From a virus: a stretch of DNA of 38,264 nt. The stretch lies in the IMG/VR virus record IMGVR_UViG_3300045988_016904, one strand, 5' to 3'. A program made the translations under genes and the position numbers. This document shows positions 1,519-37,292 of the stretch, one piece after another. The notes under the pieces were generated by a model. That model was not told the origin of the DNA, ran no database searches, and saw only the letters and a list, made by a program, of their open reading frames with translations. Every line of letters begins with the position of its first letter. Position 1 is the stretch's first letter.

Positions 1519-1983
1519 GTGAGCAAGCCGAGATACAGATGGTGGGGATATATCAAGAATGTCATCCGGGCGTATCCGGGGCTGAAAGCGGAATATGCGG
1601 ACTTGCACGAGCCGCCCATAACTGCCAGTATATCGGGTATGCCCGGGGGAGGGAACATATCAAATACTACTGCGCAGGCAGCGCTGCGGGAATTGCCAAA
1701 GGCTGAACAAGAAGAACTCAATGCCGTAACTAGCGCAATCAAGTTTACGTCTCAGCTGAAAACGGGAACGGATAGGCTGAAACTGATTGATCTGGTATTT
1801 TGGAAGAAAAGCCACACACTCAGCGGCGCGGCGGTGAAATTGAGCATCAGCTATGATACTGCGATAGATTATCATGGGGACTTTATCTTGCTAACTGCGT
1901 ATTTTCTGAAAAGAATTGATGCGGATGGGCTTAAGAATTATCAAAAGATTGCCTTAAAAAGCCAAAAAGGTGTGCTAAGATAG
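1519..1983 (+). CDS. RinA/ArpU-like phage late transcriptional activator (putative)
   Basis: GTG start 6 nt after AGGAGG. Has a YPGLK..E motif and a C-terminal HTH-like segment (LKLIDLVFWKKSHTLSGAAVKLSISYDTA). Sits immediately upstream of the terminase genes. Confidence 0.6.
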   Translation: MSKPRYRWWGYIKNVIRAYPGLKAEYADLHEPPITASISGMPGGGNISNTTAQAALRELPKAEQEELNAVTSAIKFTSQLKTGTDRLKLIDLVFWKKSHTLSGAAVKLSISYDTAIDYHGDFILLTAYFLKRIDADGLKNYQKIALKSQKGVLR

Positions 1984-1999
1984 TACCATGAAGAAAATG

Positions 2000-2035
2000 A
2001 AAAGAGGCTTGGGATTGTTCCTGAGCCTCTTTTTG
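2000..2035 (+). terminator. intrinsic terminator after the RinA-like gene
   Basis: AAAAGAGGCT (2000..2009) pairs with AGCCTCTTTT (2024..2033), followed by a T-run. Confidence 0.75.
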
Positions 2036-2038
2036 CAT

Positions 2039-2262
2039 GGCGCGGTAGATAACGAGTTGGGCGCTCTCTCCCCAACAGAAGGCCGTTTGAATCGGCCTCG
2101 CGCCATATATATCGCCGATGGCCTCCCGCCGGCGACGAAACCCGGAAACGGGCAAAGCGGTTCCCCGGCACCGTAAGCCGGAGGGATGCGGGGAAGTAGC
2201 AAGGCCGGAGAGCAGCCTTGTGATAAGAGGAAAGAATGCCGGTTCAACTCCGGCCTTTCCCG
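2039..2262 (+). ncRNA. candidate structured RNA (~225 nt) with two tRNA-like acceptor/T-arm modules
   Basis: Module 1 (2039..2105): 7-bp acceptor-like stem, 5-bp T-like stem with loop TTTGAAT, and hairpin 2056..2076. Central domain: GAAA-capped hairpin 2141..2152 nested in helices 2122-2126/2180-2184 and 2128-2132/2165-2169. Module 2 (2190..2262): 7-9 bp acceptor-like stem and T-arm GCCGG-TTCAACT-CCGGC. No credible ORF. Confidence 0.5.
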
Positions 2263-2295
2263 CTATTTTTACTATTTTGCATGAGAGGTGGTGCT

Positions 2296-2715
2296 ATGGC
2301 TGCAAGGATTACAGATCGGAAGAAAAAAAGAATAATTGCCGACTGGATAGAAATGCAGTCGTACAGCGCCGTTGCAAAAAAGCATGGCGTAACTCACCAG
2401 ACTGTGAAAAGGATTGTCAGCGCTTCACCGGATATCGCCCAAAAAGTGCAGCAAAAAAAAGAAGAGAATACCGCCGACATGATGGCGTACATGGAATCAC
2501 AAAAAGCGGCGATGCAAGAAGCAATCACCTTGCATCTGAAAGCGCTCACTGACCCCGAAAAGATTTCAGCCGCAACGTTAAGCCAGATTGCAACATCTTT
2601 CGGGATTATCGTTGATAAGGCCACAAGAAACACGGCAAGCGGTAATGATAGCCTCAATAAGCTGGATGGGCTAATTAAGGAGTTCAGAGATGCTATTAAG
2701 CCCGAAACAGATTGA
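2296..2715 (+). CDS. terS: terminase small subunit (HTH-containing)
   Basis: ATG with RBS. N-terminal HTH (SYSAVAKKHGVTHQTVKRIV). Overlaps the terL start. Confidence 0.7.
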   Translation: MAARITDRKKKRIIADWIEMQSYSAVAKKHGVTHQTVKRIVSASPDIAQKVQQKKEENTADMMAYMESQKAAMQEAITLHLKALTDPEKISAATLSQIATSFGIIVDKATRNTASGNDSLNKLDGLIKEFRDAIKPETD

Positions 2716-3859
2716 ATTTGCAAGGTATGGGAATCACAGATGGAATTTCAAGGGCGGCGCGACCCGAAGCGGAAAAACATATCTTGATTTCAAATGGATT
2801 ATTCCCATGCGGATTCGAGAACGAGCCGGGAAAGATGGGCTTTCCGTTATTTTGGGCGTTACAAAATCCACAATAGAGCGAAATGTGCTAGAGCCTATGC
2901 GGAATCTGTACGGTGATAAACTTGTTGGGGCGATTTCCAGCGATAATACAGCATGGATTTTTGGCGAGAAGTGTTATTGCCTTGGCGCGGAAAAAGTGTC
3001 TCAGGTATCGAAGATTCGCGGCGCGTCTATCAAGTATTGCTACGGCGACGAGGTCGCGGACTGGTCGGAGGAAGTTTTTGCCCTCCTGAAAAGCCGGCTT
3101 GATAAGGAGTATTCCTGCTTCGATGGCACATACAATCCACAGTATCCCAACCACTGGCTAAAGAGATTCCTTGATAGTGATGCCGATATTTTCAGCCAAG
3201 AATACACAATAGACGATAATCCATTTTTACCCCCCACTTTTGTTGAAAATCTGAAAAAAGAATATGCCGGAACGGTGTTCTACGATAGGTACATTCTGGG
3301 GAAATGGACGCTGGCAGAGGGGCTTGTATATGATTTTTCCGAAGCGAATATCACGGATGACGTGCCGGAATTCGCGGATTATTACATAAGCATCGACTAC
3401 GGCACCCTGAATCCGTTTTCATGCGGATTGTGGGCTGTGAATGGTAATAAGGCGGAAAGAATCAAGGAGTATTACTACGATGGAAGAGCCAACTATAAGC
3501 AGCTCACAGACGAGGAATATTGCGACTCTGTGGAGGAACTGACGGACGGCTACGAAATCAAGAGGGCGATTATTGACCCTTCGGCAGCTTCTTTTATTAC
3601 CGCCCTGAAACGCCGTGGATTCCGCGTCCAGCAGGCAGACAACGCCGTTCTTGATGGCATTCGGCGCACAGCGGTATATCTCAAGAACGGGAATATAAAA
3701 ATTCACCGGTGCTGCACGGATGCCATTCGCGAGTTCGGGCTATACCGGTGGGACGATAAGAAAACGGAGGACGCGGTAGTGAAAGATAACGACCACGCTA
3801 TGGATGATATACGGTATTTCTGTAATTCCGTGATGCGAAAGAAAGTGAAGGAATCGTAA
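2690..3859 (+). CDS. terL: terminase large subunit (PBSX / Terminase_3-like)
   Basis: Walker A motif GGATRSGKT. C-terminal nuclease-like region. Sits upstream of the portal gene. Confidence 0.9.
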   Translation: MLLSPKQIEFARYGNHRWNFKGGATRSGKTYLDFKWIIPMRIRERAGKDGLSVILGVTKSTIERNVLEPMRNLYGDKLVGAISSDNTAWIFGEKCYCLGAEKVSQVSKIRGASIKYCYGDEVADWSEEVFALLKSRLDKEYSCFDGTYNPQYPNHWLKRFLDSDADIFSQEYTIDDNPFLPPTFVENLKKEYAGTVFYDRYILGKWTLAEGLVYDFSEANITDDVPEFADYYISIDYGTLNPFSCGLWAVNGNKAERIKEYYYDGRANYKQLTDEEYCDSVEELTDGYEIKRAIIDPSAASFITALKRRGFRVQQADNAVLDGIRRTAVYLKNGNIKIHRCCTDAIREFGLYRWDDKKTEDAVVKDNDHAMDDIRYFCNSVMRKKVKES

Positions 3860-6474: not shown

Positions 6475-6482
6475 TTGAATAA

Positions 6483-6520
6483 ATTGCCAGAGCTGATTTG
6501 TTTCAACTCTGGCAATTTTT
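6483..6520 (+). terminator. intrinsic terminator inside the head-gene block
   Basis: ATTGCCAGAG (6483..6492) pairs with CTCTGGCAAT (6507..6516), followed by TTTTT. Confidence 0.75.
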
Positions 6521-6528
6521 ATACACAT

Positions 6529-6600
6529 GCAGGCGGAAGCTGGGAGGGTCAGCTCCATTATTTCAATATGGGTTCGCGGGTTCAAACCCCGCCGCCTGCG
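6529..6600 (+). tRNA. tRNA-like element, possible tRNA-Glu(UUC), no encoded CCA
   Basis: Perfect 7-bp acceptor stem 6529-6535/6593-6599. D arm 6538-6541/6551-6554 with a GG-containing loop. Anticodon arm 6555-6559/6567-6571 has one U-U pair and loop ATTTCAA. T arm 6576-6580/6588-6592 has loop TTCAAAC. Atypical points: G at position 8 and no position-26 nucleotide. Confidence 0.5.
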
Positions 6601-26630: not shown

Positions 26631-26670
26631 AAAGAAAAATTCACCCGTGGTTTGGTCACGAGTGAATTTT
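26631..26670 (-). terminator. intrinsic terminator for leftward transcription
   Basis: AAAATTCAC/GTGAATTTT plus inner CGTG/CACG stem. Followed on the - strand by TCTTT. Confidence 0.6.
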
Positions 26671-26822
26671 CCCCAAATTTATTTGCCGAAATGCGCTGCG
26701 TTGGAAGCCCGTATTCCTAAACGGCGAGAAACCCTAGATTCCCGCTTTACTTTCAACAGCAGACCAAACCTGCGTCCTTGACGCACCGTTTCACTTTGGC
26801 AGTTTCGGTTCTGCCCCTCGCC

Positions 26823-26882
26823 CTAACGCATCACGCCACCTTCGTGGTTCGGTACTGGCGGTAACAAAAGTTTGTTGGACAT
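26823..26882 (-). CDS. 19-codon ORF MSNKLLLPPVPNHEGGVMR (leader-peptide-like)
   Basis: GGAGG sits 6 nt upstream of the ATG. The ORF is ~37 nt downstream of the predicted start site of the TTGACT-17-TATAAT promoter. Confidence 0.35.
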   Translation of the reverse strand: MSNKLLLPPVPNHEGGVMR

Positions 26883-37252: not shown

Positions 37253-37292
37253 AAAAGGTGCCAAATACCGCCGAGTGTGATATAATAAACTT

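Follow-up and report, generated by a model that had tools for sequence, protein, structure and literature searches.

The usual interpretation of phage tRNA genes is that they are cargo for codon supply or counter-defence. In mitochondria, the tRNAs that lack a D arm have a short loop in its place and keep the acceptor stem, the anticodon stem and the T arm. In Firmicutes, RsaE/RoxS, RNAIII and LhrC are C-rich or UCCC-loop RNAs that pair with Shine–Dalgarno (SD) regions. Studies have shown that the tRNA genes of the P22-like phages L and Sf6, tRNA-Asn(GUU) among them, begin 46 bp after the start of the late mRNA (PMC8022706). Irregular tRNAs, or allo-tRNAs, have non-canonical cloverleaves and are found in Clostridia and phages, sometimes in polycistrons, and their authors proposed some of them as regulatory non-coding RNAs (Mukai et al., PMC5389517). 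The Y RNA-like RNAs YrlA, known from bacteria and some phages, contain a tRNA-mimicking domain with a T arm and an acceptor-like stem (PMC4201824). In this study, we analyzed the virus record IMGVR_UViG_3300045988_016904, a stretch of 38,264 nucleotides (nt) that is called the window below, with positions given on the plus strand in the numbering of the whole stretch. Upstream of its terminase gene terS the window carries a 67-nt tRNA-like RNA, which we call module 1 (M1). We believe, with a probability of roughly 0.5, that positions 1971-2295 are the 5' leader of the late (packaging) operon and carry a small cluster of tRNA-type genes, with M1 processed in the way proposed below.

As in the P22-like phages (PMC8022706), tRNA-type genes would lie between a late promoter, which is here a predicted one, and the first late protein gene. 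In both, relatives vary in which tRNA genes they have and in whether they have any, and tRNA-Asn(GUU) is a typical cargo. The window differs in its host group, in having a Gram-positive-type activator (phrog_248) instead of the Q antiterminator, and in that its conserved element, M1, is a non-decoding one. The anatomy of the locus, with M1 as a gene for a structured tRNA-like RNA among tRNA genes, is in our opinion very likely to be correct. The parts of M1 are as follows.

2039-2105, plus strand: M1, a 67-nt tRNA-like RNA, defined by covariation, the covariance model R1 and homologues
2039-2044/2099-2104, plus strand: acceptor stem; G2045 pairs with U2098 or C2053
U2046-A2052, plus strand: covarying pair of positions 8 and 14, standing where a D arm would be
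2056-2061/2071-2076, plus strand: variable hairpin with the pyrimidine-rich loop 2062-2070
2077-2080, plus strand: linker AGAA
2081-2085/2093-2097, plus strand: T arm with the loop UUUGAAU
A2105, plus strand: discriminator; no CCA is encoded

M1 homologues were searched for with a pattern made of the variable loop and the T-arm sequence, AGAAGGCCGTTYRARTCGGCC, which fixes the T arm. The pattern found homologues in at least 118 IMG/VR contigs, many of them with different stems, and in 10 GTDB genomes, and a narrower form of it found 15 metagenome contigs; the carriers are phages of gut Clostridia and some host genomes. The model R1 was built from an alignment of 30 M1 sequences, with a shortened calibration that makes its E-values rough. 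On the window it scored 92.5 bits at 2039-2105 and gave no other credible match. It aligned 69 M1 matches from 66 sources, and the alignment fitted to the model (A3) was used with a revised junction to count pairs over 63 distinct homologues. A preliminary description of this interval had drawn the M1 stems, and they stood exactly as drawn. On the 30-sequence alignment that structure had 96.5% of its cells paired and 8 pairs changed on both sides, which was reached by none of 500 shuffles. On A3, 95.8% of the cells were paired and compensatory changes were seen in 12 of the 19 pairs, again reached by 0/500 shuffles, and controls in which the structure was slid along the alignment had 29-52% paired. 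The sequences are related by descent, so the shuffle counts are not probabilities.

The acceptor stem occurs as GGCGCGG/UCGCGCC, GCCGGGG/UCCCGGC, GCUGGGG/UCCCAGC, GGCGGGG/UCCCGCC and UCCGGG/CCCGGA, and the hairpin as GUUGGG/CCCAAC, GUGGAG/CUCCAC, GAGGG/CCCUC and ACAGG/CCUGU. Positions 8 and 14 covary (C-G in 36 sequences, U-A in 15, A-U in 1), and these numbers are the ones of the universal U8-A14 contact of tRNA. M1 had been described as having no D arm; there is indeed no D stem, but the 8-14 pair is a minimal D-like element. G7 may pair with C15, as one sequence has C7 and G15, or alternatively with the invariant U66. The T arm is almost invariant, with about 24 nt of its region nearly unchanged, and its covariation appears weak: a scan with the T stem left free found one new member only, in which C51-G63 is changed to G-U. 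Across the family, M1 has an acceptor stem of 6-7 bp, the 8-14 pair, a hairpin of 5-6 bp and a canonical T arm. These comparisons indicate that M1 is a miniaturised cloverleaf, a real and conserved structured RNA under selection.

M1 is not found by the usual tools. A permissive Rfam scan gave no tRNA match to M1 at E <= 10, and nothing in Rfam 15 overlapped M1 in the window, in its chromosomal members or in its divergent phage members (E <= 1). ARAGORN in the default, -ps and mitochondrial modes did not call it, and with -ps80 it was called 'tRNA-???' with a 2-nt anticodon. Neither ARAGORN nor Rfam found a tmRNA in the window. Compared with canonical tRNA (RF00005), M1 has the acceptor stem stacked on a 5-bp T stem, the 8-14 pair, a T loop of the UUCRANY type (UUCRAAU, as a feature common to both) and the discriminator. 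It has no D stem, no Rfam match and no 7-nt decoding anticodon loop. The loop in the anticodon position has 8-39 nt across the homologues and a variable sequence, and M1 is therefore unable to decode.

The other described tRNA-like RNAs differ from M1 as well. The mitochondrial tRNAs without a D arm still decode with a 7-nt anticodon loop. The allo-tRNAs keep a 7-nt anticodon loop and have a long D stem, a long variable arm and 8/4 or 9/3 acceptor branches, whereas in M1 the D element is reduced, the variable arm is missing and the loop is non-decoding. In YrlA, the acceptor end is closed by a loop, the RNA ends form the Ro-binding stem, and the gene stands beside rsr; no rsr gene was noted in the M1 loci that we looked at. 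The layout of the locus and its other tRNA-like elements, modules 2 and 3 (M2 and M3, described below), are of known kinds, and M1 fails the tests for a tRNA, a D-arm-less mitochondrial tRNA, an irregular tRNA and a Y RNA. The statement of the preliminary description that no known RNA family is present thus holds for M1 and fails for M2, which was called by ARAGORN and scored 34.0 bits with the Rfam tRNA model against a gathering score of 29.

The interval had no match among 50,697 cultured-phage records by BLAST, and a description of the M1 element was not found in the literature. It may already have an entry, under a serial number, in one of the large catalogues that list candidate structured RNAs of gut microbiomes and phages. 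One candidate of this kind, HMP2_7457, is a highly expressed Firmicutes RNA of 67 bp (PMC8040213). M1 and its homologues are abundant in the gut viromes of humans and animals, and neither tRNA finders nor Rfam pick them up, which is a gap in annotation.

M1 lies on the same strand as true tRNA genes, namely a tRNA-Gln about 230 nt upstream and a tRNA-Asn 115 nt downstream. In L278 (L numbers are our labels for individual loci), a tRNA-Cys ends 3 nt 5' of M1, and in L160 a tRNA-Gly precedes it. Besides terS, M1 is found upstream of ParB/methylase genes; in L163 it stands between the portal and scaffold genes, and in L165 it follows a Rep-like gene. Because M1 is spread over such varied positions, we take it to be the gene for a product rather than a cis element specific to terS. 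Relatives of about 86 nt, with an 8-bp acceptor stem, an extended hairpin and a conserved UUGGGAUA apex, are present on chromosomes of Oscillospiraceae, Faecousia and Eubacteriales metagenome-assembled genomes (MAGs). On the GTDB MAG contigs L276, L279, L281, L282, L284 and L285 they stand alone, each with a terminator of its own. At least three of them are present in one MAG, two at contig ends, as is usual for repeats. These relatives share no synteny, their neighbors being yitT-like, transporter and aconitase-like genes, and they had no match in Rfam or ARAGORN. The 8-bp acceptor was considered as a sign of tRNA-Sec, which was rejected because there is no UCA loop and both ARAGORN and Rfam were negative.

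Further unannotated tRNA-like elements were seen right after M1 in L165 (minus strand, downstream of 2959-3025), L197, L217, L252 and L160. One example is GCGGCA...GGTGG-TTCGAAT-CCACC-ATGCCGC, and the element of L160 is a minihelix. These elements in divergent loci look like arrays of irregular tRNA-like genes. L165 also has a partial second copy of M1 at 2815-2880 (37.6 bits).

The sequence on either side of M1 in the window contains the following features.

1519-1983, plus strand: putative late transcriptional activator gene, with a weak PHROGs match to phrog_248 'transcriptional activator'
1971-1981, plus strand: promoter-like extended -10 box of the TRTG type, TGTG-C-TAAGAT, overlapping the activator stop codon
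1999-2035, plus strand: intrinsic-terminator-like hairpin of 16 bp with a U5 tract (-24.1 kcal/mol, z = -5.78)
2283-2291, plus strand: Shine–Dalgarno sequence GAGAGGUGG, 5' of the terS ATG at 2296
2296-2715, plus strand: terS, whose product matches helix-turn-helix domains
2690-3859, plus strand: terL, whose product matches Terminase_6N

The activator gene product had no Pfam match. The box at 1971-1981 sits 17 nt 5' of the terminator hairpin, and it would act as a promoter with a predicted transcript start at about 1988. Its form, TRTGNTANNNT, which is the Gram-positive form of the extended -10 box, has 4 matches in the window against 5.0 expected (both strands, 38 kb). Another of the four, a near-consensus box TGTGATATAAT, lies at 37276-37286 on the plus strand. 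The homology with most relatives begins at the terminator, and in most of them the upstream activator gene is of another type. In the unrelated upstream sequence of most relatives, TGTGCTATACT likewise lies 19 nt from the hairpin core AAGAGGC, which is shared, and in L280, TGTGCTATTAT precedes its own unit of terminator and M1. A TRTG-type box therefore stands 5' of the hairpin in three unrelated upstream sequences. The order of -10-like box, hairpin and M1 is also that of L301, and the hairpins 5' of M1 in L280 and L301 are analogous to that of the window. In L286/L290/L296, L291 and L299, a -10 box lies 5-6 nt 5' of the 5' end of M1, with no hairpin between them.

The intrinsic terminator had been placed at 2000-2035 in the preliminary description and was confirmed; none of 200 shuffles folded equally well. 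M1 starts 3 nt after it, and the two are kept as one block of about 104 nt in relatives with different upstream genes. To call it simply the terminator of the late activator is not adequate, since three unrelated upstream sequences each place a TRTG-type box 17 nt 5' of it. Because of this box, we place the hairpin inside the leader of a transcript that would start just before it.

In this paper, we propose that an extended -10 promoter of the TRTG type, independent of a -35 box and next to the late-activator gene, drives a transcript through the terminator, M1 and an optional cassette into terS. M1 would be freed from this leader like a tRNA without encoded CCA. RNase P would cut at its 5' end, where the preceding base is U in 29 of 37 distinct contexts, RNase Z would cut after the discriminator, and CCA would then be added. 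Where the -10 box lies 5-6 nt upstream, M1 itself would begin the transcript. RNase P, RNase Z and the CCA-adding enzyme recognise a minihelix of acceptor stem and T arm, and the proposed excision, CCA addition and stability of M1 are drawn from this. We consider that M1 is probably processed by the tRNA enzymes and would accumulate as a stable, tRNA-shaped small RNA. Of the roles suggested earlier for the interval, processing by RNase P and RNase Z would fit M1, and degenerate tRNA genes fit M2. Should M1 be produced and processed in this way, it would offer a compact case of a virus re-using the tRNA maturation pathway for a regulator, and the few tRNA mimics known from bacteria would gain a family that also has relatives encoded by hosts. 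The layout of TRTG box, terminator and tRNA-like element also offers a testable model of late-operon control for these uncultured phages.

The loop of the M1 hairpin is rich in pyrimidines. M1 loops contain 71% C+U, compared with 44% in the remaining molecule, and 23 of the 28 distinct loops contain CCUC, CUCC or CUCU. The 3' tail of Firmicutes 16S rRNA was taken by us as GGAUCACCUCCUUUCUA. The longest match of an M1 loop to this tail had a mean of 5.5 nt, while composition-preserving shuffles gave 4.40 +/- 0.20 and none of 2000 reached the observed mean. Examples of such matches are CACCUCCU, CCUCCUUUC and UCACCUC; the matches extend to 9 nt, beyond the CCUCC core. The loop thus has the C/U-rich character of the small RNAs that target SD sequences with pyrimidine loops, and its binding is a prediction. 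The likeness to RsaE/RoxS, RNAIII and LhrC would be one of function only, as these RNAs have no tRNA-like scaffold and no sequence relationship with M1. We speculated that the exposed CCUCC-type loop, a copy of the anti-SD tail of 16S rRNA, may pair with purine-rich ribosome-binding regions and make M1 a translational regulator in trans; this part of the proposal is tentative and somewhat doubtful. In any case, the most conserved member of the cluster is non-decoding, with a tRNA body under structural selection and, in most phage members, a loop like the mRNA-binding tail of the ribosome.

One step further, M1 might stand for a class of regulatory RNAs that has not been described before, miniaturised and tRNA-shaped, which gut Clostridia and their phages would make with the tRNA machinery and which would carry an anti-SD copy in place of the anticodon. 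The host chromosomes would hold relatives of this class in several copies, with another loop. We regard this as rather unlikely in its full form. If it were true, the phage would express a copy of the anti-SD sequence at the start of its late operon, which could compete with ribosomes for the ribosome-binding sites of mRNAs and reprogramme translation.

The same loop could act in cis instead. M1 would then be an element of the late mRNA leader, serving as RNase P/Z 'punctuation' or as 5' protection, and its loop would pair with the SD sequence of the first late gene and so govern the translation of that gene. In many loci, the ribosome-binding site of the following gene (terS, ParB/methylase) does come 15-25 nt after M1, the CU-rich M1 loops are able to pair with GGAGG-type sites, and in L286/L290/L296, L291 and L299, where no terminator follows the -10 box, M1 would form the 5' end of the mRNA. 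However, the M1 loop and the terS SD do not covary, as GAGAGG and GAGCGG are each seen with either type of loop, and pairing in cis between these two was rejected on this ground. In the window, 190 nt including a tRNA gene lie between M1 and terS, and elsewhere M1 is found among tRNA genes, in the gap from portal to scaffold gene, and alone on chromosomes with terminators. A cis element is therefore an unlikely explanation in our view, though it is the rival that we take most seriously.

M1 could also be a decoy, either for a defence nuclease that targets tRNAs or for a host protein with affinity for the tRNA elbow or the 3' tail of 16S rRNA. A tRNA-like shape with a non-decoding loop, matches of up to 9 nt to the 16S 3' tail, and the travelling of M1 with phage tRNA genes, which are sometimes counter-defence tools, are all compatible with such a role. 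We consider it improbable, because the loop is too variable for the specific substrate of an anticodon nuclease, the hosts carry their own copies of M1, and no associated nuclease or partner gene was identified.

Several observations weigh against a late-operon leader with a processed, anti-SD-like M1. The M1 loop of the window itself, CGCUCUCUC, is the weakest mimic of the 16S tail (3 nt), the phage member L191 has a G/U-rich loop, and the chromosomal relatives have a different, extended hairpin. The conservation of the T arm is partly due to ascertainment, since all homologues were gathered with a pattern that fixes it. Among close relatives, the changes in M1 are 3 wobble-compatible and 4 disruptive single ones, without compensation. 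A deletion in the L011/L105 lineage removes the 5' acceptor strand of M1, and M1 is absent altogether from terS relatives at a greater distance (85-91% identity). M2 has a poor D stem and, in one lineage, an A1-C72 mismatch. Finally, a promoter 5' of the terminator, if real, would mean that late transcription needs read-through or antitermination.

This last point could be turned into an explanation of its own, in which M1 or the leader is a processive antitermination RNA (put-like) that helps late transcription past the operon's internal terminators, for example that at 6481-6518. M1 stands at the start of the late transcript, there are strong terminators within the operon, and the order of promoter and terminator calls for control of read-through. 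But M1 lies after the first terminator and not before it, it also occurs alone on chromosomes and inside tRNA arrays, and it has no resemblance to known antitermination RNAs and no Rfam match. We give this explanation very little credence.

The interval between the terminator and terS is mosaic. Relatives were collected through terL and terS (at least 80 IMG/VR contigs each). An attempt to anchor them on the activator gene found it common to only 2 loci, and they were anchored on the terminator, since the upstream activator gene is mosaic. The terS-upstream regions of 80 distinct contigs fall into these classes.

Terminator and M1, then terS ('short'): 31/80 contigs
Arrangement of the window ('long'): 20/80 contigs
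M1, then a Rha-type gene: 3/80 contigs
Canonical tRNA-Gln(CUG), 65 bits, between terminator and M1: 1/80 contigs
Central spacer, then canonical tRNA-Asn(GUU), 71 bits, in the place of M2: 1/80 contigs
No anchor of terminator and M1 (a few of these cut by contig ends): 24/80 contigs

The 24 contigs without the anchor also take in the L011/L105 lineage and the more distant terS relatives. The short and long arrangements differ by a cassette with two parts, of which the first is a spacer and the second is M2.

2106-2272, plus strand: optional 167-nt cassette (spacer and M2), replaced by 2 nt in short relatives (BLAST)
2106-2189, plus strand: structured spacer or 'central domain', the first part of the cassette, as given by the minimum free energy (MFE) fold

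The same spacer is found in loci where it precedes the canonical tRNA-Asn. Its hairpins are 2112-2135, with a CCUCCC-containing loop, the GNRA hairpin 2141-2152, and 2157-2189. Variation in the spacer is sparse, and one relative has the compensatory change C2141U/G2152A in the GNRA hairpin, so that this part of the central domain drawn earlier is supported. The helices 2128-2132/2165-2169 and 2122-2126/2180-2184, in which the GNRA hairpin had been nested, are complementary on paper and were rejected. G2128A, which is the majority allele, breaks the first of them and turns a U-G into a U-A pair in hairpin 2112-2135, and L163-type sequences, which likewise break the nested arrangement, extend that hairpin to 8 bp.

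As far as these sequence comparisons reach, the interval is made up of three separable units, and no single RNA of 225 nt is obligatory. The preliminary description had favored such a single RNA of about 225 nt, in which two modules flank a central domain and are held by a 6-bp kissing contact. The three parts are indeed adjacent on one strand, and the interval folds somewhat better than shuffles (z = -2.64). However, the minus strand folds equally well (z = -2.65), and because the folding is not strand-specific, thermodynamics alone says little. M1 stands alone in the 31 short contigs, the cassette is optional, and in relatives a tRNA-Gln is inserted or a tRNA-Asn swapped in. The kissing loop 2063-2068/2208-2213 is real as complementarity (GCUCUC/GAGAGC), but as a contact it was rejected, because M1 mostly occurs without M2 and because the M1 loop changes from CGCU to UUCA in long-class contigs with its M2 partner unchanged. 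With its loop changes unmatched and its nested helices broken by natural variants, a single modular RNA is scarcely credible.

The description of the interval as free of open reading frames (ORFs) is acceptable. The ORFs that cross it, 1988-2176 and 2118-2552, are broken by the 167-nt cassette and by loop length changes of 1-2 nt. The 62-codon ORF 1988-2176, which has a signal-peptide-like start MKKMKRGLGLFLSLFL, was considered as protein-coding and rejected, since its frame is not conserved and it translates the terminator hairpin and M1.

The mosaic junctions at both ends of the block of terminator and M1, together with the nearly invariant 24 nt or so of the T-arm region, would also be expected of a signal at the DNA level, such as a recombination linker, a pac-type site or an attachment core, and the 3' halves of tRNA genes are classic targets of integration. 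Yet the compensatory changes and a conserved G-U pair indicate selection on a plus-strand RNA, the element is kept in full length and not just in its 3' half, and the contig ends near terS are scattered. We attach next to no weight to a DNA signal.

A 9-nt direct repeat, TTTTGCATG, at 2031-2039 and 2275-2283 flanks the segment from M1 to M2 and, in short-class relatives, M1 alone. It was considered as a target-site duplication, which it probably is not, as it is absent in other contexts of M1. A Rha-family gene (Phage_pRha, E = 6e-32) stands between M1 or tRNA-Asn and terS in L013 (2815-3543) and L024 (810-1511). The site before terS is a general hot spot for cargo. In L051, L052, L138 and L139, the place that the terminator and M1 take in the window is occupied by five tandem 15-nt units, GCAGCCGCAGAACGT, at about 100-190 nt 5' of terS.

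Two more tRNA-like elements and a second terminator are present in the window.

2190-2263, plus strand: M2, a low-scoring tRNA-Ile(GAU) gene or tRNA-derived element (ARAGORN, Rfam tRNA model)
6481-6518, plus strand: terminator (-20.4 kcal/mol), 10 nt 5' of the tRNA-Glu-like element
6529-6600, plus strand: M3, a low-scoring tRNA-Glu(UUC) (Rfam tRNA model, 33.5 bits against 29, permissive scan)

M2 is the sole tRNA that ARAGORN called in the window at default settings, as tRNA-Ile(GAT) at 2190-2263. Its Rfam score of 34.0 bits was obtained with permissive filters only, and the default scan missed it. The pairings that had been described for M2 are present, but the tRNA finders call it tRNA-Ile, and the 6-bp hairpin drawn earlier (2200-2220) is an alternative that appears in the MFE fold and competes with the D stem and the anticodon stem. 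As a tRNA, M2 has 2/4 pairs in the D stem and 4/5 in the anticodon stem, with G32 and G14; U33, G18-G19 and the T arm are canonical, and no CCA is encoded. No more than 21 IMG/VR contigs were found to contain it, each of them belonging to this lineage, and divergent homologues were not found. M2 could be a decaying pseudogene. That it is the relic of a phage tRNA gene without present function is plausible, though we lean away from it.

A related explanation would make both M1 and M2 decaying remnants of phage tRNAs with no present function. The phage tRNA clusters are changing: there are insertions and swaps, and some copies of tRNA-Gln are truncated; M2 is poor in score and confined to a single lineage, L011/L105 have lost part of M1, and the changes in M1 among close relatives are uncompensated. 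For M1 this is contradicted by the compensatory changes in acceptor stem, hairpin and 8-14 pair across deeply diverged members and by the maintained composition of the loop, and we hold that a relic status of the two together is very unlikely.

The recurrence of a terminator followed by a tRNA-like element, which had been noticed at 6483-6600, was borne out by the terminator at 6481-6518 and M3 at 6529-6600. ARAGORN called M3 as tRNA-Glu only at a lowered threshold, and default Rfam filters missed it, so that two low-scoring tRNA genes of this phage escape the default Rfam filters. The segment 6481-6600 has the minor-capsid-protein-2 gene on one side and the next late gene on the other, and no more than 4 related loci were found to have this intergenic region. 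The canonical phage tRNA-Asn and tRNA-Gln of the relatives (L024 604-676, L031 3251-3321) encode a 3' CCA, whereas M1, M2 and M3 do not. Elsewhere in the window, the sole Rfam report at default filters was a full-length FuFi-1 RNA (RF02986) at 26635-26840 on the minus strand, with 85.8 bits against a gathering score of 59.6.

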